From NCBI GenBank assembly GCA_964549385.1, contig CAZJVI010000002.1:1-51105 (forward strand): a stretch of DNA of 51,105 nucleotides, read 5' to 3'. The DNA is from an uncultured Gammaproteobacteria bacterium. GTDB lineage: Bacteria > Patescibacteriota > Microgenomatia > Levybacterales > UBA12049. Position numbers and translations under genes: made by a program. Position 1 is the stretch's first letter. Each line of letters opens with the position of its first letter. Below the pieces are notes generated by a model, which made no database searches, was not told where the DNA came from, and saw only the letters and a program-made list of their open reading frames with translations. Shown one piece after another: positions 1 to 51,105 of the stretch.

Positions 1-60
1 TTAGGTTTTAGAAAAATATTTTCTCTTACCTATTACCTAGCACCTAAAACCTAATATCTA
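1..60. repeat. Family A heptad-phased palindromic intergenic element (TAGGTNN / NNACCTA arms), truncated at the window edge
   Basis: The sequence ttaggttttagaaaaatattttctcttacctattacctagcacctaaaaccta is nearly identical to the copies at 2867-2947 and 3848-3926. It ends a few nt before the ATG at 65. Confidence 0.8.
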
Positions 61-64
61 ATTT

Positions 65-778: not shown

Positions 779-789
779 TCCCTAAATAT

Positions 790-1293: not shown

Positions 1294-1373
1294 GTGATAG
1301 GTACTAGGTGTCAGGTTCTAGAAAAAATATTTTCTATTACCTATTACCTAGCACCTAATCCCTAATACCTAAC
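1291..1373. repeat. Family A heptad-phased palindromic element
   Basis: taggtgataggtactaggtgtcaggttctagaaaaaatattttctattacctattacctagcacctaatccctaatacctaacc. The first TAG is the atpH stop codon, and the atpA ATG follows at 1376. Confidence 0.85.
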
Positions 1374-1375
1374 CT

Positions 1376-2869
1376 ATGAGGACTTTTCAGCAATATCTTA
1401 ACGCAACAGAAGAAATTGGATTTATCGAAGCATGCAATCAGTCTATAGTGTATGCAAGCGGTCTTCCTAACGCAACACTACAGGAGATTGTCATTTTTGA
1501 AAATGGTGAACTTGGTCTTATCCTCTCTATGAGTCGCGACCAAGTCGAGATACTACTCTTTTCACAAGCTTCTATTAAAGAAGGCCTCCGTGTTACCAGA
1601 ACAGGAGTTAAACAAGAAATACCCGTGGGGTTTGAGCTTCTTGGGAAATCCATTGATCCATTCGGTCAACCCCTTAACGCAAGTCAAACAATTACACCAC
1701 CCAAACTCTCCCGTCCGATTGACATCAGTCCAACGGGAATTAACACAAGAAAACGAATTGAACAACCTTTTGAAACAGGTGTTACCTTGGTTGATATGCT
1801 CATCCCTCTTGGCAAAGGACAACGAGAATTGGTGATCGGAGATAGAAAAACCGGAAAAACAAGTTTTTTATATCAAACTATACTCAAACAGGCAAGTATT
1901 GGAACAATTTGTATCTATGCTGGGATTGGGAAGAAAAAAACTGATATCAAAAAGATTGAAGCATTTTTCCAAGCGGCAGGAATTCAAAATAATACTGTCA
2001 TAATCGCCTCCAGTTCTGAAGATCCAGCAGGAGTTATCTATCTCACACCGTATGCGGCAATGACTCTTGCAGAGTATTTTCGAGATGAAGGGCATGATGT
2101 TCTCATCGTTATGGATGATCTTTTTACTCATGCGAAATTTTATCGAGAAATTATGTTGATCGGCAAACGCTTTCCCGGCAGAAACGCCTACCCTGCTGAC
2201 ATTTTTTACACGCATGCACGGCTGATTGAACGCGCTGGAAATTTTGTCCTCGCAGATGGCAGTGAACACGCAATTACGTGTTTGCCTGTTGTGGAATCCG
2301 TTGAAGGTGATATTGCAGGATTTATTCAAACCAATCTTATGTCAATGACTGATGGACACATTTATTTTGACGTTGATATGTTCGGCAAAGGCAACCGTCC
2401 GGCGATCAATCCATTCGTTTCAGTCAGTCGTGTTGGACGTCAAACACAAACGCCGCTTCGTTTGAGTATTAATCGTGAGTTAATCAGCTTTCTCACACTC
2501 TATAACAAACTTGAAAGTTACAGTCACTTCTCAGCAGAAGCTGGAAATGACATCAAAAGGACACTATCAGTTGCTGAAAGAATTTTTGGATTTTTTAATC
2601 AAGGTGCAAATGAAGTAAAAAATATTGACTTACAGATTATTATTTTCTGCCTCTTGTGGGCAGATTATTGGCAAGATATGATAAAAATGGAAAAAGACAT
2701 CATCGTGATAAATCAAACATACAAGTCAAGTGTTTCAGCACAGGCATTGGTAAAGGAACTAACAACGAGCGTTCAATCACTCAATGAACTGTTACAAGCA
2801 GTAAAAAAACAACAGGATAGAATTCTTAGAACATTCGGCGTTCAAGTGGTGACAGCAACGAATATCTAG
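1376..2869 (+). CDS. atpA: F-type ATP synthase subunit alpha
   Basis: Walker A GDRKTGKTS, conserved alpha core (VYLTPYAAMTLAEYFRDEGHDVLIVMDDL), and operon position. Confidence 0.93.
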   Translation: MRTFQQYLNATEEIGFIEACNQSIVYASGLPNATLQEIVIFENGELGLILSMSRDQVEILLFSQASIKEGLRVTRTGVKQEIPVGFELLGKSIDPFGQPLNASQTITPPKLSRPIDISPTGINTRKRIEQPFETGVTLVDMLIPLGKGQRELVIGDRKTGKTSFLYQTILKQASIGTICIYAGIGKKKTDIKKIEAFFQAAGIQNNTVIIASSSEDPAGVIYLTPYAAMTLAEYFRDEGHDVLIVMDDLFTHAKFYREIMLIGKRFPGRNAYPADIFYTHARLIERAGNFVLADGSEHAITCLPVVESVEGDIAGFIQTNLMSMTDGHIYFDVDMFGKGNRPAINPFVSVSRVGRQTQTPLRLSINRELISFLTLYNKLESYSHFSAEAGNDIKRTLSVAERIFGFFNQGANEVKNIDLQIIIFCLLWADYWQDMIKMEKDIIVINQTYKSSVSAQALVKELTTSVQSLNELLQAVKKQQDRILRTFGVQVVTATNI

Positions 2870-2947
2870 GTAATAGATACTAGGTGTTAGGTTCTAGAAA
2901 AATATTTTCTCTTACCTATTACCTAGCACCTAAAACCTAGTACCTAA
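2867..2947. repeat. Family A heptad-phased palindromic element
   Basis: taggtaatagatactaggtgttaggttctagaaaaatattttctcttacctattacctagcacctaaaacctagtacctaa. The first TAG is the atpA stop codon. Confidence 0.85.
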
Positions 2948-2950
2948 ACT

Positions 2951-3847
2951 ATGAATTACTTAAAAACTATTTTGGTACAAATGGAAGATTTAACAGGCAT
3001 CAAAGATATTTTTGGTGCATCTGAAGAAATCGCAAGTATGAAAATGCGCGGCATCCGCACTAAAGTATTGTTAAGCCGTGATATGAACGCGGAATTAACC
3101 GAGATTTATCGGGAAGTAAAAACGTCGTACAAAAATCAACTCATTCTCTTGACCCAAGAAAAAGGAGGAAAAAAAGTAACTAATTCTGCAAACGCAGAGG
3201 ATATTACGCTCAAGTCAGGAAATGGCAAAGGAGCTTGCGTCTTTCTGTCGGCAAATTCAGGCTTGTTCAGCAACATTCTTGAAAAAACATTTCAAGAATT
3301 CACTGAATATCTTGATAAACATAAAGAAGCAGATCCGATCGTCATTGGAGAATTTGGTAAAACACTTTTTAAGAATCATTATCCTGGCAGAGTTTTTATA
3401 TTTTATTCCCTTGCAGAAGGGAAAGCGACTGAAGACTCGCTAAGAAGAGTCACACAGGATCTTAGTTCTTACTCAAATGTTGTTATCTATTATGCACGTT
3501 TTGAGACAATGGCGCATCAGACGTCAACAATTCTTGATGTTTCAGGAGAAGAAGATAGCACCCCCCAAACTCCCGTCACGATGGCTCATTATCTCTTCGA
3601 GCCTTCACTTGAAAAAATTATTACGTTTTTTGAATCGGAAATTTTTGCCGGTATTATTCAGCAGACCGTCACTGAATCAGAACTTGCTCAATATGCATCG
3701 CGCATCACAACACTTGATATGGCACGGGAAAATATTAACAGACAGCTCAAGATAATTAATCTGCAAAAGCGTTTTGCAATGCACCGTCTTATGAATAAAA
3801 AACAAACAGAAGCACTAACAGGAATATCGTTATGGAAAGTTAGATAA
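2951..3847 (+). CDS. atpG: F-type ATP synthase subunit gamma
   Basis: About 300 aa, located between the alpha and beta genes, with helical N and C termini typical of gamma (N-terminal IKDIFGASEEIASMKMRGIR). Confidence 0.75.
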   Translation: MNYLKTILVQMEDLTGIKDIFGASEEIASMKMRGIRTKVLLSRDMNAELTEIYREVKTSYKNQLILLTQEKGGKKVTNSANAEDITLKSGNGKGACVFLSANSGLFSNILEKTFQEFTEYLDKHKEADPIVIGEFGKTLFKNHYPGRVFIFYSLAEGKATEDSLRRVTQDLSSYSNVVIYYARFETMAHQTSTILDVSGEEDSTPQTPVTMAHYLFEPSLEKIITFFESEIFAGIIQQTVTESELAQYASRITTLDMARENINRQLKIINLQKRFAMHRLMNKKQTEALTGISLWKVR

Positions 3848-3926
3848 GGTGATAGGTACTAGGTGTTAGGTTTTAGAAAAATATTTTCTCTTACCTATTA
3901 CCTAGCACCTAATCCCTAATACCTAA
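3848..3926. repeat. Family A heptad-phased palindromic element
   Basis: ggtgataggtactaggtgttaggttttagaaaaatattttctcttacctattacctagcacctaatccctaatacctaa. It lies between the atpG stop and the atpD ATG (3930). Confidence 0.85.
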
Positions 3927-3929
3927 TCT

Positions 3930-5307
<1,378 letters not shown>

Positions 5308-5311
5308 AAGA

Positions 5312-5401
5312 AGGTAATAGGTACTAGGTTTTAGGTAATAGAAAATAATTAATAAATAACTACTAGCACCTAGCACCTAGCACCTAGCACCTAGCACCTA
5401 A
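5312..5401. repeat. Family A element whose right arm is a perfect tandem (TAGCACC)x5
   Basis: Left arm aggtaataggtactaggttttaggtaatag. Five exact TAGCACC heptamers lie at 5364-5398, then taatct and the ATG at 5405. Confidence 0.9.
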
Positions 5402-5404
5402 TCT

Positions 5405-5707
5405 ATGGCAGATAACCAATCAAAAAATATCAATCAATCAACTAATGGATCAGGAGAAACGATTCATGTAATAATCCGCAACCGGACACAAATACTTTTT
5501 GATGATGAAGTAAAATCTGTCACGTCAAAAAACGACACAGGGATCTTTGATGTTCTACCGGAGCATACAAATTTTATCTCACTTATCACCAGTCCTCTCG
5601 TTCTTGGCAAAGTTGATGGACAAAAACAGGAAATTGTCTTTCAAAATGGCCTTATTAAAGTCAAAGACAATGCAGTTTTCTGCTATGTGGATCTGTTATC
5701 AAAGTAA
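5405..5707 (+). CDS. atpC: F-type ATP synthase subunit epsilon (short form, beta-sandwich domain only)
   Basis: Last gene of the atp cluster. The pattern IHVIIRNRTQILFDDEVKSVTSKNDTGIFDVLPEHTNFISLI matches the epsilon N-terminal domain. Confidence 0.75.
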   Translation: MADNQSKNINQSTNGSGETIHVIIRNRTQILFDDEVKSVTSKNDTGIFDVLPEHTNFISLITSPLVLGKVDGQKQEIVFQNGLIKVKDNAVFCYVDLLSK

Positions 5708-5708
5708 A

Positions 5709-5788
5709 TTAGGTAATAGGTACTAGGGATCAGGTAATAGAAAAATAACTGATAAATAATTGCTAGTACCTAGCACCTATTACCTAGT
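5709..5788. repeat. Family A heptad-phased palindromic element between convergent atpC and ndk
   Basis: ttaggtaataggtactagggatcaggtaatagaaaaataactgataaataattgctagtacctagcacctattacctagtaa. Confidence 0.8.
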
Positions 5789-5796
5789 AACTCTAC

Positions 5797-6264
5797 TCAC
5801 TTCTTCCGTTCGTCTTCGAGGTAGATGTGGACTTCATCAATTTTCTGCCAATCAAAAACCTCCTCAGAGGTAAAAATAATTTTTCTTTCTCTTTCAGCTG
5901 CCTCAATATTTTCTGAAGCATGGATCAAATTGTATTGCTGACTCATCGCAAAATCGCCACGAATCGTGCCAGGAGACGCTTCTCGAGCTTTGGTAATGCC
6001 AATCATCGTCCGAACCGTTGAGACAGCTTCAACGCCTTCCCACAGCATTGCGACAATCGGATATGATTTCATGTAGCTCTTAAGCCCTGGGAAAAACGGT
6101 TTATCTTTATGATGGACATACCATTCATCAAGAATAGCATCTGTCAATGAAACCATTTTGATTGAAGAAAGCTTGAGCCCTTTATGCTCAAAACGAGAAA
6201 TGATCTCACCAATAAGTCCTCTTTGTACGCCATCTGGTTTTACTAAAACAACTGTCTGTTCCAT
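5797..6264 (-). CDS. ndk: Nucleoside diphosphate kinase
   Basis: VVLVKPDGVQRGLIGEIISRFE, catalytic-His context NLIHASE, and a length of 155 aa. Confidence 0.9.
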   Translation of the reverse strand: MEQTVVLVKPDGVQRGLIGEIISRFEHKGLKLSSIKMVSLTDAILDEWYVHHKDKPFFPGLKSYMKSYPIVAMLWEGVEAVSTVRTMIGITKAREASPGTIRGDFAMSQQYNLIHASENIEAAERERKIIFTSEEVFDWQKIDEVHIYLEDERKK

Positions 6265-9810: not shown

Positions 9811-11631
9811 CTACATCTGTTCAGGTGCTTTTATTCCAAGGAGGCCTAAACCATTTTTGAGGATTTCCCCTGTTTTTGCAGTTAAATATAAGCGGAAATT
9901 CTTTATCTCTTCTTCGGATTTGAGAATCGGAAACTTCTGATAAAACAAATTGTATGCTTGGGACACTTCAAAAAGGTAGGTACACAATACATTTGGCGCA
10001 TAGCGTAGTGCCGCGTCTTCAACCACTTCAGGAAATCGTGAAAGCAAACGCAGCACATCCCGCTCTTCAACTTTAAGGGAATGGGGAGCAGGGAATGGAG
10101 AGTAGAGATTATTTTTGTGTTCCCTGTTCCCTAATATCTGTTCCCTAATATCTGTTCCCTTACGCAAAACGCTTTGCGTTCGAGCATAGGCATATTGCAA
10201 ATAGGGTCCAGAGTTGCCATCAAGAGAGACAGAACTCTCAATATCAAATGCCACGTCTTGTGTCGCACCAACTTTAAGAACCGAGTATTTCACAGCGCCA
10301 ATTGCAATTTGTTCAATTGTGCGCTCCCTCTCTTCTGATGAAATTCTCCCTTCCTCTACCACTTGCTCTATCCGCTCTTTTACCTGATCAAGTAACCAAT
10401 CAACAGTTAAGACATCACCTGTTCTTGAGCTCATTTTACGATCTTTTAACTGCACCATTCCCATTGAGAGATGTTCTTGTTTACCGGCAAATCTTTCAGG
10501 ATCGATAAGATCGAGCGCTTTAAAAATAACTTTAAAATAGCCAGCTTGTTCGTTTGCAACGACGTGAATTTTTTTATCAAACTGAAAGGCTTTATACTCC
10601 GTATATGCATTTGCCATTTCCTTACCCTCGTAAGTAGGATATCCTTTTGCAGTAATAAATACTCTCGTATGCAATCCATATTTTTCTCCAGGAAAAATAA
10701 CTGTATCTCCACTCTTTTCAAATACCTTACCGATATTTTCATTTACAATTCTTGGCCCCTCTGCAACCATTTCGCTCTCAAAAAACAGCCTTTTAAATTT
10801 TGTATAAAAACGTTCATAAAATTTATCATAATAATCGAGGCTCCATTGGCGTGTCTCTCTGTAAAGATTCCACACTTTTTCTTGTTCTTCTTTTCTTAAT
10901 GAAGATGTAATTTCTCCACCTGCACATTTTTGGTATAAAAACGCATTTACTTCATCTATCTCTTTTGCCAATTTTTCAGATTCATAAAGCTTTACTCCTT
11001 CTGCATATCCTCTTCCCAAAAAATGGGCCTTATCCTTGTTGTCCCATTTCATTATTTCTTCAAATATTTCATTGAAGCTCTTATTCTTTTCTTTCTCCAT
11101 ATTCCGCATCAACTCCTGAATGCCAAACATAGCTTTTGCCACATGTGGACCAATATCTCCTTGATAATTTGCTCTATAAACATCCGCTCCTACTGCTTCT
11201 AACAACCTTGATAACGATTCTCCTGTAATTAGTGTTCGCATATGGCCAATATGCATCTCTTTATGGGTATTCGGATGGGCAAACTCAACCATTATTTTTT
11301 TGCCACTTATTTCACTCTCATGCTTTTCTAAATGATTTAAACCATCTATTAATGCATCACTTGATACCCAAAAATTAATAAAACCAGGCTTTGCGACATG
11401 GATTTCATTAAATATCCCTATTCCCTGTTCCCTGTTCCCTAATTTCTCAACAATCTCTTCAGCAAGCTCCATCGGGTTCTTCCCTGCTTTTTTCGCAGCG
11501 ACGAGCGCAACATTGGTAGCATAATCTCCATGCGATGCATCCGTTGGATAGTCAACGGAAACATCCTCGAGTGGAATATCCAAATCATTTAGTGTATCTC
11601 TAAGCAAAGTTGTAATTTTCTTTTTCAGCAT
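9811..11631 (-). CDS. argS: Arginyl-tRNA synthetase
   Basis: HIGH motif context HPNTHKEMHIGHMRT, the C-terminal anticodon-binding region, and the typical terminal Met. It contains heptad-repeat segments (see findings). Confidence 0.92.
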   Translation of the reverse strand: MLKKKITTLLRDTLNDLDIPLEDVSVDYPTDASHGDYATNVALVAAKKAGKNPMELAEEIVEKLGNREQGIGIFNEIHVAKPGFINFWVSSDALIDGLNHLEKHESEISGKKIMVEFAHPNTHKEMHIGHMRTLITGESLSRLLEAVGADVYRANYQGDIGPHVAKAMFGIQELMRNMEKEKNKSFNEIFEEIMKWDNKDKAHFLGRGYAEGVKLYESEKLAKEIDEVNAFLYQKCAGGEITSSLRKEEQEKVWNLYRETRQWSLDYYDKFYERFYTKFKRLFFESEMVAEGPRIVNENIGKVFEKSGDTVIFPGEKYGLHTRVFITAKGYPTYEGKEMANAYTEYKAFQFDKKIHVVANEQAGYFKVIFKALDLIDPERFAGKQEHLSMGMVQLKDRKMSSRTGDVLTVDWLLDQVKERIEQVVEEGRISSEERERTIEQIAIGAVKYSVLKVGATQDVAFDIESSVSLDGNSGPYLQYAYARTQSVLRKGTDIREQILGNREHKNNLYSPFPAPHSLKVEERDVLRLLSRFPEVVEDAALRYAPNVLCTYLFEVSQAYNLFYQKFPILKSEEEIKNFRLYLTAKTGEILKNGLGLLGIKAPEQM

Positions 11632-12174: not shown

Positions 12175-12501
12175 ATGGATACTGCCCAGCTCTATCAAAA
12201 ACTTCTTAACGATGCAATTCGTAAACAAGTCATTATTCTTGGACGTCATATTGTGCTGATGAAAGTACGAAATATTTCAGGGGTAACAGTCAGTGATGAT
12301 GGTACTATCCTCGGAATGTCCGGTAAACCCGAAGATATTGTAACTCGTTTTGTTGAAGAGTTTCGAGAACTTTCCTCTCCCCTCGTAAAGAAAACAATGC
12401 AACCGCTATTGAGTGCATTAACTCCAGTAACACAACCGCAACCCATTCCAGAAGTTAAACAAGAACAAAACAACAAACAGGAACTAGTCCCTAGTCCCTA
12501 A
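12175..12501 (+). CDS. Hypothetical small protein between the response regulator and the histidine kinase
   Basis: The ORF is tightly packed between two-component genes and I recognised no motif. The 3' end runs into the heptads tagtccc tagtccc taattcc. Confidence 0.45.
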   Translation: MDTAQLYQKLLNDAIRKQVIILGRHIVLMKVRNISGVTVSDDGTILGMSGKPEDIVTRFVEEFRELSSPLVKKTMQPLLSALTPVTQPQPIPEVKQEQNNKQELVPSP

Positions 12502-18847: not shown

Positions 18848-19471
18848 TTAGTAAACGCTCACTTCATCTTTAATCTTTGTAAACTCACTCTGCCCTACCA
18901 CTTTTTTTTCCAACAAATCTTGAGCACTTTGGTAGGGTCTATTTGAAATAATTTTCTGTGCCGTCACCGGTCCAATCCCTGGTAACGCATCGAGTTCTTC
19001 TGCGCTTGCTTGATTGATATTAACTGTTGAAGATCCAGCAACAGTTCCAGATAAATTACTAGATGCATCGCCTGAGGTCTTCATTTGCTCTCCAACAGCC
19101 GGAATATATAATTTTGCTCCATCCGTCAATGGAGATGCCAAATTAAGATTTTGCGCCACTTGTTGACGATCAGCATTCTGAGATAATCCTCCCGCTGCCG
19201 CAAGCGCATCTTGGATTCGGCTGTCTACAGATATTTTATAAACACCTGGCTTTTGCACTGCTCCCTCAATATCAATCGTTATTTGTTTTGGCGTTGGCGA
19301 AACATTTACTGCTGATGCCGGCTGTATTGAAGGAAATTGCGGGTCATTTTTTTGTTGAGGATAAGATAGGTTGATCACGCCATATCCTATGCAAATAAGG
19401 CCAATTACGGCACACAGCAACGCAATCACATGTTCTCTGATAAACGGAAATATCTGCTCCTCCCAGTCCAT
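18848..19471 (-). CDS. comEA: ComEA family DNA-binding competence protein (TM, SLBB-like domain, helix-hairpin-helix)
   Basis: C-terminal INQASAEELDALPGIGPVTAQKIISNRPY HhH motif and an N-terminal TM anchor. Confidence 0.8.
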   Translation of the reverse strand: MDWEEQIFPFIREHVIALLCAVIGLICIGYGVINLSYPQQKNDPQFPSIQPASAVNVSPTPKQITIDIEGAVQKPGVYKISVDSRIQDALAAAGGLSQNADRQQVAQNLNLASPLTDGAKLYIPAVGEQMKTSGDASSNLSGTVAGSSTVNINQASAEELDALPGIGPVTAQKIISNRPYQSAQDLLEKKVVGQSEFTKIKDEVSVY

Positions 19472-20132: not shown

Positions 20133-23100
20133 TCAATTGACCACAAAATTGAGTATCTTTCCGGGAACGAGGATAACTTTCTTTACGCCATTTTCCAAAA
20201 ACTTTTTCACATGCTCATCTTCTCTTGCTCTCTTCTCAAGCAATTCCTTATTACTTCCATCCGCTACTGACACATCCATTGTTACGCGCAATTTACCATT
20301 CACCTGAACGGCAATTGTCACACTATCTTTCTTCAAATATTTTTCATCATAAATTGGCCACTCACTAGTATGAATAGAATGGAACCCTGTTCCCCGTTCC
20401 CTATTCCCTATTCCCTGATACAACTCCTCCGTCATATGCGGCGCAAATGGTGCCAAAAGTTTTAAGTAAACTTCCACTTCTTCTCTACTCAAGCTTTCCT
20501 GTTTTGCCAAAAAATTATAGTACGTCATAAGCTTTGCAATCGAAGTATTAAACCGCAAATTCTCCATATCCTCAGTAATCCCTTTGATCGTTTCATGCAT
20601 CATCTTCAAACTTTCCCTATTCTCTAGTCCCTGTTCCCCGTTCCCTGCTCCCTGCAACAACTTCCACACTCTCTTCAAAAAGCGGCTCATACCATCAATT
20701 CCACTGTCTCTGAAATCGCCGCCTTGATTAAATGGTCCCAAAAACAAAAGATACGTTCTCAAAGTGTCAGCACCGTATTTGCGGATATAATCATCAGGAT
20801 TGATGACATTGCCTTTACTTTTACTCATCTTTGAACCGTCTTTGATAATCAAACCATGAGCATAGAACCTCGTGAACGGCTCTTCGAAATCAACATATCC
20901 CATGTCCTTCAGTGCCATCATGAGGAATCGTGAGTAAAGCAAATGCAGAACAGAATGCTCAGCTCCACCGATATATGAAGTCACTGGTAACCAAACTCTT
21001 CTCTTTTCAGCACTTTCAATTTCACCCTTTGTAGCGCCTTTAAATTCTTGAGCTTTTTCTTTTGGCATTGGGAATGGAATATGTTTCAAATCCGTTGCCA
21101 AGTACCGTAAGAAATACCATGCGGAATCCAAAAAGGTATCTGAAACATCAGTTTCTCGAATTGCTTTGCCACCACAGTGTGGACATGTCGTCTCATAAAA
21201 TTCTGGATGATTCGCAAGCGGTGCTTTGCCCGTACCAAGCGGCTTGAAATTTTTAATGTATGGCAATAACACTGGCAAATTCTCTTCTGGGTACCAGCCG
21301 AGATTGTGAACCTCAACTTCTGGAAATTCCTCAAGAATTGTTGGGAATTCAAGAATGCCAGCACCAGCATTGAAATGTCCATGCTTTTTGAAAACTTTTA
21401 CTCGCGGGTTCAAAACGGTATATGTCTTTTCAACAGACAACGGAATATATGGATCATCATCTGAGAGATACAAAACTGTCTGGTTCACTGATTTTGCAAC
21501 ATCGTTAAGTTTCGCAGTTGATTTATTGAATGTCTTAATCACCTTTTCAGCATGATAGTATCCAGCTTTTCGCAATACTTCCCAATTTTTCTCGCCTTGT
21601 TCTTTTGCAGTTGGTGCAACAAGAATCAATTTCTCAACCGATAATTTACTTTGTCGGATAAATTCAATAGCAGTTGGCGCACCGAGACTGTGTGCAACAA
21701 TCGATACAGTATCTTTTTTTGTGATGCCGAGTTTTTTTAACGCGCCAGTCCACTCTGCAAGCGTTGGTGTATCTGCATTAGGCAAATCAGGAATGATAAC
21801 ATCATATCCCTTTGTTTCGATGAGCTTTTTAAACCAAGGGAGCCAATTCTCTTCACTGTTGCCTCCTAGTCCATGAAGCAATAGAACCTTAGGTTTTCTC
21901 TTTGCACATTCCGCACAATAAATCATTGGAATTGGCGGCCCCCAATATCTTTGACGTGAAATCAACCAATCTCGCAAATGATAGGTCACTTCCCTTTTAC
22001 CATATCCTTCCTTTTCAATATGATCCATGATCACAACAGTTGCTTTATGAATATCCATACCGTTTAAGAAACCTGAGTTGATCATCTTTCCTTCTTCTTC
22101 CTGTACTTGCTCTATTTTTATAATGGGAGAATCATCGTCATCTTTGCCCACAACAACTCGAATAATTTCTAGACCAAACTTCGTCGCAAACTCAAAGTCT
22201 CTTTTATCATGTCCAGGAACTCCAACCAGTGCACCGGTCCCAAAACCACCAAGAACGAAATCAGAAACCCAAATCGGCATCTGATATCCGGTCAAAGGAT
22301 TCATTGCATATAATCCAGTAAAGACACCTGTCTTTTCTTTCCCTTCTGCTTGTCGTTCTATTTCCGACTTGTTCATCGCTTTATCAACATATTGTTGGAT
22401 TTTCTTCACTAATTGAGCATCAGTTTTGACTACACCTTTTAATATCTTTGAAACGAGTTCATGCTCAGGAGCAAGTGCGATAAATGTTGCACCGAAGTTA
22501 GTGTCAGGTCGTGTTGTAAAAATTGTAACAGTTTCATTACTATCGGCGATTTTATATGTTATGTTAATTCCTTCTTTCTTTCCTATCCAATTTTTCTGTG
22601 CAAGTCGCACCTTTTCACTCCAATTCAAATCTTTAATATTATTGAGCAAAGGTTCAGCGTACTTCGTGATTTTGAAAAACCATTGTTCAAGATCTCTCTT
22701 CTCAACAATACTGCCGCAGCGTTCACACTGCCCATCAATCACTTGTTCATCAGATAAAACGGTCTTACATGATGGGCAAAAATTAACCGGAGAGTTTTTC
22801 TTATAAGCCAAACCTGATTTAAAAAGTTGTACAAAGATCCATTGAGTCCAGCGGTAATATTCAGGATCATAAGTCTCCAATTTATTTTTCCAGGCAAAAG
22901 CATTTCCTGTTTCATGTAATTGTCTATAAAAGTTTTTCTCCGTCCTCTTTGCGTGATCTACAGGATGGTCATTTGTTTTGATTGCATGGTTCTCGGAGTG
23001 AATGCCAAACCCATCAAGACCCATTGGTTGGAAAACCTCATACCCCATCATCCTCTTAAATCGACCAAATGCATCAACTCCTCCTGAAGTGTAACTAAAT

Positions 23101-23348
23101 CCGACATGTAACCCTTCTGCTGATGGATATGGGAACATCATCAAATTATAATAAAGTGTGCGTGACCTTTTGCTCTTCTTTTTAGCCTCGTTTACTGAAG
23201 CCCTTGAAGCTGATGGAGCCTTAGCAGTATCGAAGTCAGGCTGATAGATACCCTCCTTCCCCCATTTAGCTTGCCATTTCGGCTCAATCGTTAAATGGTC
23301 ATAACTTTTTTTCTTAATATTTTTTGTTTTAGCTTTATTTGTGCTCAT
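20133..23348 (-). CDS. leuS: Leucyl-tRNA synthetase with a nested alpha/beta serine-hydrolase domain
   Basis: CP1 editing motif TTRPDTNFGATF, KMSKSKGN, RQRYWGPPIPM and RETDVSDTFLDSAWYFLRY. It is 1071 aa long because of insertions (see findings). Confidence 0.92.
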   Translation of the reverse strand: MSTNKAKTKNIKKKSYDHLTIEPKWQAKWGKEGIYQPDFDTAKAPSASRASVNEAKKKSKRSRTLYYNLMMFPYPSAEGLHVGFSYTSGGVDAFGRFKRMMGYEVFQPMGLDGFGIHSENHAIKTNDHPVDHAKRTEKNFYRQLHETGNAFAWKNKLETYDPEYYRWTQWIFVQLFKSGLAYKKNSPVNFCPSCKTVLSDEQVIDGQCERCGSIVEKRDLEQWFFKITKYAEPLLNNIKDLNWSEKVRLAQKNWIGKKEGINITYKIADSNETVTIFTTRPDTNFGATFIALAPEHELVSKILKGVVKTDAQLVKKIQQYVDKAMNKSEIERQAEGKEKTGVFTGLYAMNPLTGYQMPIWVSDFVLGGFGTGALVGVPGHDKRDFEFATKFGLEIIRVVVGKDDDDSPIIKIEQVQEEEGKMINSGFLNGMDIHKATVVIMDHIEKEGYGKREVTYHLRDWLISRQRYWGPPIPMIYCAECAKRKPKVLLLHGLGGNSEENWLPWFKKLIETKGYDVIIPDLPNADTPTLAEWTGALKKLGITKKDTVSIVAHSLGAPTAIEFIRQSKLSVEKLILVAPTAKEQGEKNWEVLRKAGYYHAEKVIKTFNKSTAKLNDVAKSVNQTVLYLSDDDPYIPLSVEKTYTVLNPRVKVFKKHGHFNAGAGILEFPTILEEFPEVEVHNLGWYPEENLPVLLPYIKNFKPLGTGKAPLANHPEFYETTCPHCGGKAIRETDVSDTFLDSAWYFLRYLATDLKHIPFPMPKEKAQEFKGATKGEIESAEKRRVWLPVTSYIGGAEHSVLHLLYSRFLMMALKDMGYVDFEEPFTRFYAHGLIIKDGSKMSKSKGNVINPDDYIRKYGADTLRTYLLFLGPFNQGGDFRDSGIDGMSRFLKRVWKLLQGAGNGEQGLENRESLKMMHETIKGITEDMENLRFNTSIAKLMTYYNFLAKQESLSREEVEVYLKLLAPFAPHMTEELYQGIGNRERGTGFHSIHTSEWPIYDEKYLKKDSVTIAVQVNGKLRVTMDVSVADGSNKELLEKRAREDEHVKKFLENGVKKVILVPGKILNFVVN

Positions 23349-27025: not shown

Positions 27026-30000
27026 ATGGATATAGTAAAAGAATTTAAAAATCATTTACTGACACAAAAAAATCCGCCCAGTCATCTAACGATAAAGAAT
27101 TATCTTTCTGATGTAAGAAGGTTCTTTAATTGGTTTGAAAATACTTATCAAACACCTTTTAATCCGCAATGGCTTAACAAAGAAGTCATTTGTCGCTATC
27201 AGAATGAAATCCAATTAACAGGACAGAGTTCTCTCTCAGCAGCCAGTTCGATAAAACGATATCTTTCTTCTCTTCGCAAATTCACAAGCTTTCTAGAAGA
27301 ATCTGGAGCCATAAATACCAACCCGTTTTCACTCCTTCAACAAGTAGAGCCTCAAACTGATCCATTTTTCTTTAAAGAATTTAAAAATTATCTTTTCACC
27401 GAACACGCAAGCAGGCTAACAATAAAAAATTACCTTGCAGATCTTAGACAATTTATTGACTGGCTAGAACAAGTAACGAGTAAAGGTAATTCTGAAGCTA
27501 ATCAGCCTCAAAATAGCAATCTACTGCAATCGATTGATAATTACGTTTTGGAACAGTATAAGACAAGGCTCCTGAACGAAGCCAAACTCTCCCCTATATC
27601 CATTAACCGTAAACTTTCATCACTACGGAGATACGTACGATGGTTGAATGAAAAAGGAATACTCGAAGATATTCTTATCCAGCCATACTCAGAACCTGAA
27701 AATAAAAAAGTCGAAATCAAAGAAGAAAATCCGCCTGTTCAAGTGCAAATGCCTGAATTACCGTTAACGGTTTTGCAGGGAATGTCTGAAGAAGACGAAA
27801 AAATTAAAACCAATTATTCACGGTTTGCCCCTTTCAGATTGATGCAAAAAACTACAAAAGCTATCAATCTAGGTACTGATTTGCTATTTTTTGGTCCTAT
27901 AGCCCATGTTGCCGAAGCTATTCATTATTCAATCTGGAAAAGCGGAAAAAAAACAATTTTTGCGCCAGTAAAGACTATTCTTAAGACTTCTTCATATATT
28001 CCTACAGGAGTATCAGTCAAAACAATTATCCCAAAAGCATCAAGCATTATGCCACCACGATCTGCTAATTTAGCTTCGGTTTTGGACAAAATACAACAAT
28101 ATCGAATAGCTTCCAAGCCTGAAACAGTTCATAACTTTGCCAAAGCTCTCTATGCTCCTTTAAAACTTTCGACTCAAAGCATGGACTGGAAGCAAAAAGT
28201 TCTTTATCACATTCGATACACTAGACCAAACTGGTACAGAAACTATCATTCTTTTGCTTTTGTCCATTACTTACATATCGGCATTCTGATAATGGCAACA
28301 GTTATTTCAGGAGCTACTTTATTTATAACCTGGTATGGAACAGGCTCAAGCCAAAAACAAGCAGTTCTCGCAGCTCAAGACACTGCGCCACCACGGACAC
28401 TATCCTTCCAAGGAAGACTACTCGATAACACCGACACACCCATAACCGCAGAGACACCTCTGCGGTTTGCTCTGTATAATAGCCCCGCTGCATCAGGTGC
28501 TGCACTTCTTTGGCAAGAAACTCAAGATATCAAACCGGATCAAAACGGACACTTCACTGCAACTCTCGGTGAAAGAAATCGATTAGATCAAAATGTCTTC
28601 ACCAATAATCCTTCGCTTTATATTGGACTCACCGTAGGGAACAATCAAGAACTCACGCCTAGACAACAAATTCCAACGACCGAATATGCTGCTAATTCGC
28701 AAACTGTTGAAGGGCTCCCGCCTATCACTGATAATCCTGATGTAGCTCAAAATGTGCTTCTTGCCCTTGATTCTTCTGGCAATTTAACTATAGGTGGAAA
28801 CTCAAGCCATACCTTCCAGGCAACTGGAGGCCAATTTAGTATAATCGGTCAAACACTATCGCTTACTACAAACTCTGGATCAAATGGCGATATAAAAATT
28901 GCTCCTGACGGATCGGGAATTATTGATCTTGAAAAACCTATTCAAAATATATCAAACTATACCGGACCATCAGGTATCCCAGGTGCCCTGGAGGTCGATG
29001 ATTTACTGTCAGTTTTTGCTACCTCAAGTAGTCAATCAGCCCTTACTGTCAACCAAAACGGTACAGGCGAAATCATTAGCGGAAAGAGTCATGGAACTGA
29101 TAAATTCACCATTGATACCAATGGTAATGAGTTTATAAAGGGTAATCTTATCCTCGATGGTGATACTATAAACACTAATTCGACAGTCTTTGATATAGCA
29201 GGATCTAGTGTCAGGAGCCTTAGCATCGGCGATCATGCGTCTATTATTTCTTTGGGAGGATCAAGCGGCATCACATCAATCAATAATAGTTTGTCCGTTC
29301 AAGGATCTGTTACTGCCAATGGACTCATTACTGCTAATGCAGGACTAACTATCAGCTCGGGACAAAAATTAACACTTCCCGACTTTAGCCCGAATGGCAT
29401 TCCTTTCATCAATGGCAATAATCAAATGGTTCAAGATGCAGGAAGCTTTTCATGGGACGATGCAAATAAAATATTAAATGTTTTTGGAACGATGTGTGTT
29501 CAAGACAGCTCTACTACCTGTAATGCAAGCCCAGGAACAATTTATGCAGCTTCTTATCAAGCCGCACCTGCTGACCTTGCTGAGAATTATGTCTCATCAC
29601 AACAGCTTCAACCAGGCAATGTCGTCACTCTTGAAGGGCAAGGAAACACTGAAGCAATTCGTGAATCGACAACGCCTTACCAGAAAGAGCTTATCGGAAT
29701 CATATCAACTAAACCTGGAATTACTTTAAATTCTGATGCTAAAGCTGACTCGACTCATCTTTATGTTTATCCTGTCGCGCTCCAAGGGAGAGTCCCGGTG
29801 AAAATTTCAAGCATTAACGGTGCTATCAAAGCCGGAGATAATATCACCTCTTCTTCAATTCCTGGTGTTGCTATGGATGCAAGCGGCTCTGGACAAATCA
29901 TCGGTAAAGCTCTTGAATCCTATACTGATCCAAACCCTAACGATGTGGGTCAGATAATGGTTTTTGTGAACCTCTCCTCTCAAACATCTCCAACTGCAAT

Positions 30001-31405
30001 CACTGATAGTGGAAATATCATGGCTGCTAGCGAATCGGCAACAGTAAATGATAACACTACCCAAACCATGAATCAACCCATGAATTCAACCAATCTTGCA
30101 GAATTCCTCTCAAATATTGCAGGAACCATTCAATTGGGTGCAGTGCAAGTTCAAACACTAACAACACAGTCGCTTTCCGTCGCGACAGATAATATAACAA
30201 TCGGCGGTGAAACGCTTAAGGATTACATTACGCAGATTGTCGATCAGATAGTAGAACAGCGACTCAACAAACATCTAGCACAGATCCCTCAAAAGCCTCA
30301 GATTCTTAGCCCTGTTGCAAGTAATTCTGCTCAATTAGCAGATCAAAACATATCGCAATCGATAATACCAACGCAAAACGCCAGTCAAAGTGCTGCCGTA
30401 CAAACTGCAAACAATGGAAACGCAAGCCCCGCAGCGACCGTTGTATATAATATATATAATAGTATAGCGACACAAAGCGCAGAGGCAGCCACTATTTCTG
30501 CAACGCCGACCATTAGTCCAATACCAACGGCAGACGATACACAACTTCAGGCAAGTGATTCTGGAAATATCGACTCAGAAAATATTGATACCAATACTTT
30601 TGAGCCTGCCGCGAGTTTAAGTGGCCAATTACAAAATGTCCCAAATCTTCAAGCAAGCTTCGGCACATTCAATCAAGGGCTCGTGGCACTCGGCCCAACG
30701 AGCCTGACAGATGTCGGAGTACAAGGGACTATTTCAGTGAATAATAATTTAAAAATTACGGCTGACGCAATAAACACCATCGGCTCAAATCTCAATATCG
30801 AGCCGCTTCGTCAAGGCAATATTCTTTTCATGGGAGGATTAGTGGCAATTGACACGCAAGGCAACCTTCAGGTCAACGGCAATGCAGTCTTCTCACATAA
30901 CGTAGCTGTCAAAGGTGAGCTTGCCGCAGGCATTATCGCGCCTATTCCGAATAATGATCTTATTATCAACTTGAAAAATAAGGCAGACAAAACAGCTTCT
31001 TCACTTATTATTACCAATGCAACAGGCAGTGGCGTTTTGCAAATTAATCAATCTGGAGATCTGACTTCTTCAGGTGATGCGAAATTTAATTCTGTTGCAA
31101 GCAATGGCTTCTCAATTATCCGTGGTGCACAAGCTGATACTTCGATGACCGAAACTGTGGCTAATGGATCTGCAGGAACAGGAGTCATCAGTGCTTATGA
31201 GACGCAACGAACCATTATCACACAATTTGTAACTGCTCATTCACTTATTTATATTACGCCAACTTCAAATACTGATACTGTCACGCCCTATCTTGCCAGA
31301 CAAACAATTCAAGATCCAAACAATGGATCGCAAGGCTCGTTTACCGTTGAAATACCAACGAGCATAACAAAAGATATTGGATTTAATTGGTGGATAGTAA
31401 ATTAG
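27026..31405 (+). CDS. Giant single-pass membrane protein: two N-terminal integrase-type SAM-like (core-binding) domains, a TM helix and a roughly 1000-aa extracellular fibre/beta-helix-like region
   Basis: Repeated TIKNYLSDVRRFFNWFE...SIKRYLSSLRKF and TIKNYLADLRQFIDWLE...SINRKLSSLRRYVRWL. TM helix FVHYLHIGILIMATVISGATLFITWYG (about 28250-28336). Ser/Thr/Gly/Asn-rich exodomain with ADLAENY...GNVV. No tyrosine-recombinase catalytic domain. Confidence 0.55.
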   Translation: MDIVKEFKNHLLTQKNPPSHLTIKNYLSDVRRFFNWFENTYQTPFNPQWLNKEVICRYQNEIQLTGQSSLSAASSIKRYLSSLRKFTSFLEESGAINTNPFSLLQQVEPQTDPFFFKEFKNYLFTEHASRLTIKNYLADLRQFIDWLEQVTSKGNSEANQPQNSNLLQSIDNYVLEQYKTRLLNEAKLSPISINRKLSSLRRYVRWLNEKGILEDILIQPYSEPENKKVEIKEENPPVQVQMPELPLTVLQGMSEEDEKIKTNYSRFAPFRLMQKTTKAINLGTDLLFFGPIAHVAEAIHYSIWKSGKKTIFAPVKTILKTSSYIPTGVSVKTIIPKASSIMPPRSANLASVLDKIQQYRIASKPETVHNFAKALYAPLKLSTQSMDWKQKVLYHIRYTRPNWYRNYHSFAFVHYLHIGILIMATVISGATLFITWYGTGSSQKQAVLAAQDTAPPRTLSFQGRLLDNTDTPITAETPLRFALYNSPAASGAALLWQETQDIKPDQNGHFTATLGERNRLDQNVFTNNPSLYIGLTVGNNQELTPRQQIPTTEYAANSQTVEGLPPITDNPDVAQNVLLALDSSGNLTIGGNSSHTFQATGGQFSIIGQTLSLTTNSGSNGDIKIAPDGSGIIDLEKPIQNISNYTGPSGIPGALEVDDLLSVFATSSSQSALTVNQNGTGEIISGKSHGTDKFTIDTNGNEFIKGNLILDGDTINTNSTVFDIAGSSVRSLSIGDHASIISLGGSSGITSINNSLSVQGSVTANGLITANAGLTISSGQKLTLPDFSPNGIPFINGNNQMVQDAGSFSWDDANKILNVFGTMCVQDSSTTCNASPGTIYAASYQAAPADLAENYVSSQQLQPGNVVTLEGQGNTEAIRESTTPYQKELIGIISTKPGITLNSDAKADSTHLYVYPVALQGRVPVKISSINGAIKAGDNITSSSIPGVAMDASGSGQIIGKALESYTDPNPNDVGQIMVFVNLSSQTSPTAITDSGNIMAASESATVNDNTTQTMNQPMNSTNLAEFLSNIAGTIQLGAVQVQTLTTQSLSVATDNITIGGETLKDYITQIVDQIVEQRLNKHLAQIPQKPQILSPVASNSAQLADQNISQSIIPTQNASQSAAVQTANNGNASPAATVVYNIYNSIATQSAEAATISATPTISPIPTADDTQLQASDSGNIDSENIDTNTFEPAASLSGQLQNVPNLQASFGTFNQGLVALGPTSLTDVGVQGTISVNNNLKITADAINTIGSNLNIEPLRQGNILFMGGLVAIDTQGNLQVNGNAVFSHNVAVKGELAAGIIAPIPNNDLIINLKNKADKTASSLIITNATGSGVLQINQSGDLTSSGDAKFNSVASNGFSIIRGAQADTSMTETVANGSAGTGVISAYETQRTIITQFVTAHSLIYITPTSNTDTVTPYLARQTIQDPNNGSQGSFTVEIPTSITKDIGFNWWIVN

Positions 31406-45250: not shown

Positions 45251-45330
45251 AGGTAAATAGGTTCTAGGTGCTAGTATAATATTATTTTTAGATATTTACC
45301 TATTACCTAGCCCCTAACACCTATTACCTA
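45251..45330. repeat. Family A heptad-phased palindromic element
   Basis: aggtaaataggttctaggtgctagtataatattatttttagatatttacctattacctagcccctaacacctattaccta, directly 3' of the yacL-like gene. Confidence 0.8.
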
Positions 45331-46157: not shown

Positions 46158-46229
46158 AGATTAAAGATTAATGAATACAGAATAAAGATCTTTAATCATT
46201 AATCGTTATTCTTTAATCTTATTTAATAC
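46158..46229. repeat. Family B heptad-phased palindromic element overlapping the radA stop codon
   Basis: Units gattaaa gattaat gaataca gaataaa gatcttt aatcatt aatcgtt attcttt aatctta. The last radA codons (KIKE, stop) are encoded by the right arm. Confidence 0.85.
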
Positions 46230-47615
46230 TTCTCGCAAACTCTTATATTTCTTTGCCGTAATGATATTTTTGAAACCCAACTTCTCTGCTTCTTTACTTC
46301 GCTTTTCCAGTCCAGCAACCATACGCAATTCACCCAATAAGCCTACCTCAGCAATCCCAACCGTTTTTGGCAAAGCGATATTTTTGAAACTTGAATACAC
46401 CGCAAGACAAATTCCCAAATCAATTCCTGGATCCGCAATCTTCATTCCACCAGCGACATTGACAAACACATCCATTGTATCCAACGGGAGATGACAATGC
46501 TTTTGCAAAACAGCAAGAAGTAATTCAACTCGTCTTGCATCAATACCGGATACTACTCGACGTGGCATAGGAAGTCGTGTAGTGACCGCCAGTGCTTGTA
46601 ATTCCACCAAAAAGGCTCGTGACCCCTCAAGTGTTGAAACAAGGACACTCCCTGGCACTTGTTCGCCACTTTGCGTCAAGAATAACTGCTCAGGATTGTT
46701 CGCTTCCTGCATCCCATTTTCTTCCATTAAAAAAATTCCCACTTCATCAACAGGACCAAATCGATTTTTTAAACTCCTGAGAATTCTTGTTTTGGCAAAT
46801 TTTTCCCCTTCCAAAAAAAGCACAGTATCTACCATATGAGATAGAACCATCGGACCAGCCACCATTCCTTCCTTTGTCACATGGCCGACAATCACTACAG
46901 GGATATTATATTGCTTTGCCGTTCTGATAAATTGCAATGCGGCATAACGAACTTGACCGACGGATCCTGATAACCCTGATACATTCTGTGATTCCATTGT
47001 CTGAATGGAGTCAATAATTACAAGATCAGGTTTCATCTCTACAATTTGCTCTACTATAGCATCTGCATCTGTTAAGGAAAGGAGATACAAATTCTTTTCC
47101 GAATCAGGAATCATGAATGATGAATCATGGTTTTGTTTTTTCCCTAGTCCCTGATCCCTAGTCCCTGATTCCTGTTGCTGAATCCTATCGGCTCGCATCT
47201 TCACTTGATCTACAGACTCCTCTCCAGAGATATACAGGACTTTTTTTTCAAAAGACAAACTAATCGCCAACTGTAAAAGCAATGTCGACTTTCCAACTCC
47301 CGGATCACCAGCAATCAATGTCGCGGATCCATTTACAATTCCCCCACCAAGAACGTTATTCAATTCTTCATATTTTGTTTGAATTCTCGATGTTTTTTGA
47401 TACGCAATTTCTTGGATTTTTTGCGGTTTACTTTGCACTAAATTATTACTCACAGCATTTTTGGCTCCCTCTGCAACACGTGATATTTTGAACTCTTTCA
47501 TAGAATTCCAACTACCGCATTCGGGACATTTTCCAAGCCATTGAGGACTATCATAGCCGCATTCTTGACAGACAAAATTTATCGTAGGTTTCTTAGCCAT
47601 ACTATTATTATACAC
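46206..47615 (-). CDS. radA: DNA repair protein RadA/Sms
   Basis: Zinc ribbon CQECGYDSPQWLGKCPECGSWNS, Walker A GDPGVGKST, KNRFG motif, and a Lon-like C-terminal domain. Confidence 0.93.
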   Translation of the reverse strand: MYNNSMAKKPTINFVCQECGYDSPQWLGKCPECGSWNSMKEFKISRVAEGAKNAVSNNLVQSKPQKIQEIAYQKTSRIQTKYEELNNVLGGGIVNGSATLIAGDPGVGKSTLLLQLAISLSFEKKVLYISGEESVDQVKMRADRIQQQESGTRDQGLGKKQNHDSSFMIPDSEKNLYLLSLTDADAIVEQIVEMKPDLVIIDSIQTMESQNVSGLSGSVGQVRYAALQFIRTAKQYNIPVVIVGHVTKEGMVAGPMVLSHMVDTVLFLEGEKFAKTRILRSLKNRFGPVDEVGIFLMEENGMQEANNPEQLFLTQSGEQVPGSVLVSTLEGSRAFLVELQALAVTTRLPMPRRVVSGIDARRVELLLAVLQKHCHLPLDTMDVFVNVAGGMKIADPGIDLGICLAVYSSFKNIALPKTVGIAEVGLLGELRMVAGLEKRSKEAEKLGFKNIITAKKYKSLREVLNKIKE

Positions 47616-47647: not shown

Positions 47648-47718
47648 TAATTCAGATTAAAGAATGAAGATTAATGATTAAAGATCTTTATTCGTTAATC
47701 ATTATTCATTAATCTTAA
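47648..47718. repeat. Family B heptad-phased palindromic element
   Basis: taattcagattaaagaatgaagattaatgattaaagatctttattcgttaatcattattcattaatctta, between the radA start and the S1-protein stop. Confidence 0.8.
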
Positions 47719-49705: not shown

Positions 49706-49773
49706 CTAGGTAATTAGGTGTCAGGTGCTAGGTTCTAGAAAATATTTTTTCTAATACCTAGTCCCTATAACCT
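49706..49773. repeat. Family A heptad-phased palindromic element in the 23S-5S spacer
   Basis: ctaggtaattaggtgtcaggtgctaggttctagaaaatattttttctaatacctagtccctataacctag, followed by the perfect hairpin tagcgagc-ata-gctcgcta. Confidence 0.8.
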
Positions 49774-49819
49774 AGCGAGCATAGCTCGCTAAAAAGTGAA
49801 GAGATAGTCTTTAAAAATT

Positions 49820-51105
<1,286 letters not shown>

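Follow-up and report, generated by a model that had tools for sequence, protein, structure and literature searches.

A heptanucleotide-repeat quasi-palindrome in the radA gene of a Levybacteria genome that probably evolved in place

Two reports that cite Mrazek 2007 (PMC4679880, PMC4692102) describe heptanucleotide repeats as more abundant in many bacteria than any other long-unit simple-sequence repeat, and give polymerase slippage as a proposed origin. The GGGAATC arrays of Xanthomonas and the GGGGAYT arrays of Nostoc are found alone or in inverted pairs, for the most part between co-directional genes (~7–30% are intragenic); they prefer four units and form G-quadruplexes (G4) in vitro (PMC4692102). 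Rickettsia palindromic elements (RPEs) are dispersed repeats of ~100–150 bp, with a family consensus and conserved peptides, that sit in frame within open reading frames (ORFs) and undergo translation (PMC10969869). Here we examine a segment of the radA/sms gene on a 51,105-nt stretch of DNA from an uncultured bacterium (GenBank contig CAZJVI010000002.1; hereafter the window), which shares features with both systems. The segment is probably a locally evolving heptanucleotide-repeat quasi-palindrome in a permissive, anciently variable linker of RadA, rather than a discrete element transposed into the gene.

The radA feature is a case of heptamer repeats of the short tandemly repeated repetitive (STRR) type in a new phylum, in which gene ends are saturated and stop-purged in-frame copies sit in core enzymes. 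As in the STRR and Xanthomonas repeats, its units are tandem, 7 nt long, and G-rich (GGAATCA/GGGACTA here, GGGAATC/GGGGACT there). As in the STRRs of Nostoc, Anabaena, and Calothrix, the repeats are single or inverted pairs, are rare at divergent spacers, and are intragenic in a minority of cases (Rehm et al. 2015, PMC4692102). Copy number likewise differs between close relatives, here at sister arrays, and four G-tracts fit a G4. Unlike in the STRR hosts, the repeats belong to a member of the candidate phyla radiation (CPR) with 38% G+C in the window, whose nearest homologues of RadA and arginyl-tRNA synthetase (ArgRS) are found in metagenome-assembled genomes (MAGs) of Candidatus Levybacteria / Levyibacteriota and other Patescibacteria. 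In addition, many unrelated units coexist in this one genome (TAGGTAA, AAGATTA, GGGAACA, and others) with no single dominant unit, the hairpins occupy whole intercistronic spacers from stop codon to ATG, and the coding copies lie in essential housekeeping enzymes, purged of in-frame stops. An analysis of stop purging was not found in the STRR papers cited here, and the literature searched yielded no report of in-frame heptad repeats in CPR bacteria, though such reports may exist.

The original prediction, made from the DNA alone, read the segment as RPE-like. That likeness holds for the outcome, a palindrome apparently translated within an essential gene at a site that the fold tolerates, and fails for the process, which looks like simple-sequence-repeat dynamics: the radA segment is ~73 nt long, has a 7-nt periodicity, lacks a second copy in our data, shows graded length variation at its site, and belongs to Levybacteria/Patescibacteria rather than Rickettsia (Rickettsiales). 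Cyanobacterial small dispersed repeats (SDRs), as Elhai and colleagues reportedly described them in 2008, have conserved cores of 21–27 nt that contain an 8-nt inverted repeat and lie within heptamer arrays, and are said to copy by a proposed mechanism without a known enzyme. By that reported description, SDRs resemble the repeats of the window in being very small and tied to heptamer arrays and hairpins; by the same reported definition they differ, as no conserved core is common to the radA loop region and the other window elements. The ribosome skips the 'byp' palindromes of yeast mitochondrial genes and the hop in T4 gene 60, and these can include stops. As a short palindromic insertion in coding sequence, the radA insert resembles them, but it is free of stops and open in the radA frame only. 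Palindromic amphipathic repeat coding elements (PARCELs) are conserved motifs of 25 residues (75 nt) in accessory or membrane proteins that spread by horizontal transfer (PMC2996958). Like them, the radA repeat is intragenic, tandem, dyad-symmetric in its DNA, and apparently translated; unlike them, it has a 7-nt unit, an incidental peptide, and core enzymes as hosts.

The gene and the parts of its insert are laid out as follows.

46206..47600, minus strand: radA/sms coding sequence, 464 aa from ATG in public gene calls
47094..47180, minus strand: hypervariable linker codons, 29 aa (QQQESGTRDQGLGKKQNHDSSFMIPDSEK), flanked by KMRADRI and NLYLLS
47141..47172, minus strand: sense-strand 5' arm of G-rich heptads, GGAATCA GGGACTA GGGATCA GGGACTA GGGA, period 7/14 by Tandem Repeats Finder
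47131..47140, minus strand: A/T-rich hairpin loop, sense-strand AAAAAACAAAA region, from sequence, inverted-repeat search, and folding
47101..47130, minus strand: sense-strand 3' arm, CC ATGATTC ATCATTC ATGATTC CTGATTC, period 7 and 4.1 copies by Tandem Repeats Finder
47142..47165, minus (coding) strand: G4 motif (G3N4)3G3, predicted in silico

The mechanical ORF of radA reaches a GTG at 47615 (46206..47615, minus strand). The RadA/Sms architecture is complete, with an N-terminal zinc ribbon, a RecA-like ATPase, and a C-terminal Lon-like domain (Pfam Zn_ribbon_LapB, AAA_25/KaiC/DnaB_C, and ChlI). The protein aligns end to end with the solved S. pneumoniae RadA (5lkm/8rxc; E = 1e-112) and retains all columns invariant across 62 RadA homologues, including Walker A (GDPGVGKST) and KNRFG.

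On the plus strand, the insert opens with the array GAATCAG GAATCAT GAATGAT GAATCAT GG, continues with TTTTGTTTTTT, and closes with CCCTAG TCCCTGA TCCCTAG TCCCTGA TTCC. Tandem Repeats Finder assigns period 7 to both arrays, with 4.1 copies of the unit GAATCAT and 86% matches at 47101-47129, and 3.7 copies at 47141-47173, where period 14 is an alternative (2.4 copies, 94%; TCCCTAGTCCCTGA). An inverted-repeat search recovers arms of 34 nt at 47097-47130 and 47149-47182 that are 71% complementary and spaced by 18 nt. The DNA and translation quoted in the original prediction are correct, and the inverted heptad arms it described were found; the complement, however, is exact only for the outermost heptad pair (GGAATCAGG / CCTGATTCC), the inner heptads having diverged (GGGACTA/GGGATCA versus ATGATTC/ATCATTC).

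The periodicity exceeds chance at both scales. Across the window, 44 period-7 arrays were counted against 2.6 in shuffled sequences (~17-fold), with no comparable excess at periods 5, 6, or 8, and the best period-7 stretch in radA (19/24 matches) was equaled by only 1 of 1000 dinucleotide shuffles of the gene. Folding of the radA hairpin gave a minimum free energy (MFE) of -22.2 kcal/mol for the sense RNA (z = -3.1) and -17.8 kcal/mol for the antisense (z = -1.9), so the hairpin is only moderately stable.

The minus-strand radA ORF reads across the insert as QQQESGTRDQGLGKKQNHDSSFMIPDSEK with zero stops, whereas stops occur in all five other frames; the predicted tryptic peptides from the insert are IQQQESGTR, DQGLGK, and QNHDSSFMIPDSEK. 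A (GGGACTA)n array translates as GTRD(stop)GLGTRD(stop), and (TCATGAT)n as HDS(stop)FMIHDS(stop). The actual peptide reads GTRDQGLG ... HDSSFMIPDS, which is both array translations with each in-frame stop substituted. In the 5' arm, GGGATCA replaces GGGACTA at the unit phased for TAG (GAC TAG to GAT CAG); in the 3' arm, TCATCAT replaces TCATGAT at the unit phased for TGA (TGA to TCA). A peptide that equals the array translation with its stops replaced implies that the segment derives from repeat arrays and was selected to stay translatable, and it is from this purging that we infer translation of the insert. Openness of the radA frame alone, together with stop removal, points to ordinary translation and against bypass or splicing. 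Intein, intron, and bypass readings were also considered and were rejected on the ~73-nt size, the open frame, and the stop purging.

An AlphaFold2 model of RadA was built with 62 homologues (mean pLDDT, the predicted local distance difference test score, 66.9). Model residues 148-167, corresponding to the insert, have pLDDT <50 and lie between a confident helix (130-146) and a confident strand (171-175), suggesting that the insert is a disordered loop joining two elements of the ATPase core. The original prediction had proposed such a model as a check for a surface loop, and a low-confidence loop between helix and strand is what the model predicts. The product is probably a disordered, hydrophilic surface loop of 20–25 residues that RadA tolerates. 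We infer no benefit of this loop to RadA, and effects of the DNA or mRNA hairpin, or of the G4, are possible as side effects.

To place the insert among its relatives, we compared the linker across 120 RadA homologues and the DNA of ~60 distinct loci. The window linker exceeds that of S. pneumoniae RadA by ~24 aa, with the alignment gap at exactly the same place, those of distant Levybacteria by 21-23 aa, and those of the closest relatives by 13-14 aa. Linker length spans 6-41 aa across Levybacteria. Distant members have 6-8 aa (SKNDKNN, LGKKKESE), most have 10-22 aa, and a scattered few reach 25-41 aa. On a neighbor-joining tree built without the linker, the long-linker RadAs are dispersed, each with short-linker sisters. 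The nearest relatives (P0002 and P0004, 86-88% identical) have linkers of 15-16 aa (AESSENQHSKLSKSPD in P0004). The segment is therefore extra relative to other RadA proteins and in frame, as originally proposed; the worry raised with that proposal, that the segment might be an ancestral conserved region of RadA, is contradicted by the linkers of 6-8 and 15-16 aa, and the radA genes lacking the long insert that it suggested seeking are found in the 86-88% identical sisters.

Long linkers tend toward palindromy, in units that vary. We folded six long linkers built from repeats (window, L034, L047, L056, L048, and L045); that of the window consists of 7-nt units, whereas the other five consist of 8-9-nt TCAGAAAA-type units. 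On the sense strand, five of the six are well more stable than dinucleotide shuffles (z = -3.1 to -5.7; MFE -22 to -49 kcal/mol), and L045 folds more weakly (-19.2 kcal/mol; z = -1.4 sense, -3.2 antisense). The 41-aa linker of L060 has no repeat units and gave z = -2.1, scored against mononucleotide shuffles only. Palindromy is a property of the DNA, since both strands of the six long inserts fold about equally well. A structure specific to the sense RNA was considered, as G·U pairs seemed to favor the mRNA strand, and was rejected on this unbiased folding.

An outer stem (GAAAACTCAGA / TCTGAGTTTTC, encoding ENSE...SEFSE) is common to the clade. The window keeps the homologous 3' flank TCGGAAAA, and its inner sequence is unrelated to that of the 86-88% identical sisters. 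These sequences suggest that the site already held a small palindrome in the clade ancestor, the apex of which would have repeatedly grown and shrunk in different lineages. Single-arm heptad arrays also occur at the same RadA site, namely (GGGGAAA)4 in L029, GGGTAAG/GGGGAAA in L005, and (AAGAATY)n in L052 and L006. Because linker lengths, palindromes, and arrays all vary among relatives, the site is an old, recurrent hotspot of palindromes and short-period repeats, rather than a conserved part of RadA or a single insertion event.

Changes in progress were caught at other arrays by comparing the window with a sister strain (L094; 99.35% identity over 21.6 kb). Two of these arrays are the following.

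10076..10160, minus strand: in-frame full heptad hairpin in ArgRS (RKGTDIREQILGNREHKNNLYSPFPAPHSLK)
12484-12500: C-rich strand of G-rich heptads, (CTAGTCC)n, closing ORF 12175-12501

The strains differ by three indels, of which two are whole heptads: the spacer array at 5363-5376 differs by 14 nt (two heptads), and the array closing ORF 12175-12501 by 7 nt at 12483, where L094 has one unit more. The length and last residues of the ORF 12175-12501 protein are unchanged in L094, as the unit gives TAG in every frame; the (CTAGTCC)n array is a frame-independent stop. The third indel, 11 nt in atpD, is unrelated to heptads. In the ArgRS hairpin, the strain alleles differ by conversion of one unit, GATATTA to GGGAACA (4 nt), which changes IL to GT at residues 499-500, and the opposite arm carries a T/C change that improves pairing (MFE -31.6 to -42.9 kcal/mol). 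Whole-unit slippage, unit conversion, and a coordinated two-arm change are thus observed between strains, at arrays other than radA. Strain substitutions also cluster in short patches (19362-19428, 11326-11364, and 9980-10006), among them 67 nt of the comEA-like gene 18848-19471 that hold 18 differences. Such clustering is more suggestive of recombination tracts or local conversion than of uniform divergence.

We propose that, in the Levybacteria lineage, 7-nt tandem arrays, usually as inverted pairs, would continually arise and turn over, both within co-directional or convergent spacers and within structurally permissive protein linkers. The arrays would change by replication slippage in whole 7-nt units, as between the strains at two other arrays, and by unit-to-unit conversion, seen once, with one opposite-arm change, in the ArgRS hairpin; arm-to-arm templated correction may accompany it. 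Quasipalindrome template switching and slipped-strand mispairing are established replication-error mechanisms in E. coli, and template switching is proposed here by extension from that biology. Together, they would explain whole-unit gain and loss, unit conversion, and arm-to-arm copying, and all three kinds of change are seen between the strains. They are mechanisms and not an element family, and by themselves they explain neither why 7 nt is preferred nor how abundant the arrays are across the lineage. The RadA linker, which runs from the helix after the catalytic 'SGEES' strand to the next β-strand of the RecA-like ATPase, would have begun with a small ancestral palindrome. In the window species, the inner palindrome would have been replaced or expanded to ~73 nt of GGGACTA-type and GAATCAT-type heptads, and selection would then have retained only frame-preserving variants free of in-frame stops. 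We prefer local growth because the window and ~90 other loci yielded no second copy of the arms, no target-site duplication flanks the insert, and no transposase was found among the window ORFs scanned.

The radA array is one of many in this genome. A common architecture, a purine-rich heptad arm, a short A/T loop, and a pyrimidine-rich arm, fills many spacers of the window. Family A (Fam A) has the form TAGGTNN / loop AGAAAAATATTTTCT / NNACCTA, and its ~85-nt hairpins fill four ATP-synthase spacers (delta-alpha, alpha-gamma, gamma-beta, and beta-epsilon) from stop codon to ATG, with 92-95% identity over 86-96 nt, loop included. Window 1-5800 also holds Fam A copies before the first ORF and beyond epsilon, and looser copies occupy the 5S-23S spacer and 45296-45330 (downstream of the PIN/TRAM gene). 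Family B (Fam B) flanks radA on both sides and recurs at three to four other loci, five to six in total. Units of the GGGAAYA/GGGACTA type are in frame at six coding sites of the window. The intergenic hairpins named here and the coding arrays beyond those given above are listed below.

49716-49790: Fam A-type heptad hairpin in the rRNA operon, 23S–5S spacer
46158..46220: Fam B intergenic heptad hairpin, AAGATTAATGA type, centered on AGATCT, at the radA 3' end
47654..47714: Fam B intergenic heptad hairpin in the spacer between the S1-domain gene and radA
11415..11440, minus strand: in-frame (GGGAACA)n array in ArgRS, LGNREQGIG
20385..20416, minus strand: in-frame (GGGAAYA)n array in leucyl-tRNA synthetase (LeuRS), GIGNRERGTG, +7 aa versus T. 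thermophilus LeuRS
20628..20655, minus strand: in-frame G-rich heptad array in LeuRS (GAGNGEQGLENRE)

The original prediction that the radA insert resembles the intergenic elements is borne out, in that both are heptad-periodic, palindromic, and built alike in the same genome. The Fam B hairpin at 46158..46220 even provides the last five RadA codons (N K I K E) and the stop. A strong period-7 signal was found in 14 of the 30 non-divergent (co-directional or convergent) spacers and in 0 of the 5 divergent ones. The linkers that hold the ArgRS and LeuRS arrays vary too, whether relatives or solved structures are taken for comparison; among ArgRS homologues, each of the two sites is a variable linker rich in the kind of peptide that a translated 7-nt array yields (KIKNQKSKI, EIRNTKSEANTKYKIQNTKY, and, in a 53% identical protein, LGNRERGTG). 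A simple filter accounts for the G-rich family being the one seen in genes, as its units lack stop codons while Fam A and Fam B units contain them. Four canonical (G3N1-7)3G3 motifs occur in the window against 0.03 expected from dinucleotide shuffles, and all four are on the sense strand, in ArgRS, LeuRS (two), and RadA. In most of ~90 Levybacteria loci, period-7 arrays outnumber those of periods 5, 6, and 8, with units that differ per genome, and the orthologous spacers adjoining radA in relatives carry heptad hairpins with unrelated units.

Several of these observations count against local growth as a sufficient account. The same unit families turn up at unlinked loci of a single genome, and this recurrence, together with the near-identity of the Fam A copies, means that copying between loci or strong convergent selection on units must act, so local slippage is insufficient. 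The palindromy of the radA hairpin is modest, its arms being 71% complementary. The available contigs showed no variation in the radA array, in a look-up that retrieves identical proteins only. The account also presumes template switching, polymerase slippage, and a loss of mismatch repair that might favor them.

The first alternative, that a small mobile palindrome (RPE-like, or like a miniature inverted-repeat transposable element (MITE) or a REPIN, a hairpin of repetitive extragenic palindromes) from the family of intergenic hairpins transposed into radA and survived by a chance in-frame insertion in a surface loop, seems to us unlikely but not negligible. It keeps this standing because unit families recur at unlinked loci and Fam A is near-identical including the loop (92-95% over 86-96 nt in dispersed copies); Fam B at five to six loci, the G-rich unit type at six coding sites, and sisters at 86-88% identity without the long insert are also consistent with it, and RPEs provide a precedent for translated in-frame palindromes (PMC10969869). 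The radA arms themselves, however, have no second copy at up to 2 mismatches (<=2) in the window plus ~90 other loci; the short Fam B core pattern is too unspecific for an informative copy search. Unlike MITEs and REPINs, the segment shows neither terminal repeats beyond the hairpin itself nor a target-site duplication, and no direct repeat flanks the insert. Pfam scans of ~33 window ORFs, with a few such as 27026-31405 left out, found no catalytic domains of transposases, integrases, or RAYTs (the tyrosine transposases associated with such palindromes) in the 51 kb. The arms consist of different heptads, a palindrome preceded the present one at the site, length variation across the clade is graded, and the changes between strains are unit slippage and conversion in place, not insertion and excision. 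On this evidence we rate the mobile insertion that the original prediction favored as the less likely reading.

A second alternative, to which we give little credence, is that an active process in Levybacteria, specific to a 7-nt period but independent of the unit, writes and homogenizes hairpins at gene ends. Its basis could be a property of the replisome or repair set, or a dedicated enzyme, perhaps in other CPR bacteria too. The hairpins would then be intercistronic punctuation, terminator or mRNA-processing structures with stops in all frames, that spills over into disordered linkers of essential proteins; if so, the radA, ArgRS, and LeuRS copies would be an undescribed, continuing source of loop innovation and of G4 or hairpin regulation in core genes.

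That the hairpin, the G4, or both are a selected cis-acting signal in radA, or that the loop has a protein-level role, is more doubtful still. The signal could pause or attenuate transcription inside the gene, mark a site of RNase processing, slow translation, or act as an R-loop/G4 switch, with palindromy kept by selection. Such selection would fit the recurrence of palindromes with differing sequences at the RadA site in several lineages, the heptad hairpins of unrelated units in orthologous spacers upstream of radA in different species, and the ArgRS alleles that differ in both arms, one pairing better. It would also fit the exactly four sense-strand G-tracts at all four coding G-rich arrays (0.03 expected), a number matching the four-unit preference of G4-forming heptamers (PMC4692102). 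Yet most relatives, the nearest included, lack a hairpin here while RadA is otherwise conserved, folding shows no sense-strand bias, and the window hairpin is weak (z ~ -3) with decaying arms. No Rfam family (gathering thresholds) or tRNA was found in or near the insert, which has no terminator-like tail, and scans for intrinsic terminators and promoter consensus returned nothing at 47090-47190 or at the flanking hairpins, with counts equal to those of shuffles.

RadA of identical sequence (464 aa) is encoded on 14 contigs that come from various ENA and JGI samples and different assemblers; the insert has the same DNA in 8 of the 8 loci read among them, and the 90%-identity RadA cluster has one other member, which differs solely at residue 463 (K463N), outside the insert and within the Fam B hairpin at 46158..46220. 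An assembly artefact (chimeric join or collapsed repeat) or a decaying radA pseudogene is therefore scarcely credible: repeats and hairpins are classic sources of misassembly and atpD in the window has an 11-nt frameshifting deletion relative to the sister strain, but the same protein on 14 contigs and the same insert DNA in eight loci exclude the misassembly that the original prediction had kept in view, only the radA frame is open, with stop-avoiding substitutions, and RadA retains its invariant columns, all its domains, and a full-length match to the S. pneumoniae protein.

Further observations concern the same genes and their neighbors. RadA has a second hotspot in the linker between zinc ribbon and ATPase (~residues 40-70, pLDDT <50), where several relatives carry in-frame heptad arrays.

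L013 3115-3151: N-terminal RadA-linker heptad array
L014 3111-3147: N-terminal RadA-linker heptad array
L070 1573-1604: N-terminal RadA-linker heptad array
L025 3528-3561: N-terminal RadA-linker heptad array

The atpD gene (3930-5307, plus strand) is split by a frameshift at 4225-4250, as the window lacks 11 nt (AGATTATTGGC) after 4243, while atpD of L094 is intact at 462 aa; the split could mark a real pseudogene of this strain or a fault of the assembly. We see no classical Shine-Dalgarno sequence upstream of the ATP-synthase ATGs (...CCTAATCTATG). LeuRS (20133-23348, minus strand, 1071 aa) contains an inserted alpha/beta-hydrolase domain at ~residues 505-690 (LLLHGLGGNSEENW...), which matches PF06821 Ser_hydrolase and PF00561 within the synthetase domains. 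The 23S rRNA gene (49813-51105, minus strand) matches Rfam model positions 1923-2925 (1003) with 1293 nt, and the ~290 extra bases suggest an insertion or intron; rRNA-gene insertions and introns are common in CPR bacteria. In L028, a rumen 'Bacteroidaceae' MAG with a 43% identical RadA, (GTTGAGA)5 lies inside an ORF (6002-6042) with four period-7 arrays nearby, so coding heptad arrays may not be confined to Levybacteria. Many of the loci with RadA 50-79% identical (L004, L007-L011, L013, L016, L017, L019-L021, L025, and L026) carry discordant MAG titles ('uncultured Gammaproteobacteria', 'Candidatus Sulfotelmatobacter', 'Methylomirabilota', 'Saccharimonadales') and are probably mislabeled or contaminated bins.

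Together, these findings indicate that, in a reduced CPR genome, the dynamics of simple-sequence repeats reach the core enzymes RadA, ArgRS, and LeuRS without breaking their genes. Seven-base arrays, which would be expected to disturb the frame, persist there because selection removes one in-frame stop per array and keeps the net length in frame; the outcome of this purging is lineage-specific, fast-evolving surface loops. Heptad hairpins in non-divergent spacers are, in turn, conserved between species in position but not in sequence. In practical terms, the array sites are usable as strain-resolving length markers, and the peptide signature G-x-G-N-R-E-Q-G and its relatives can flag repeat-derived segments, as indel-rich linkers in CPR proteins can be derived from repeats and need not be functional. 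The finding also revives the question of why bacteria favor 7-nt units, for which CPR bacteria, with their minimal repair machinery, offer a good testing ground.

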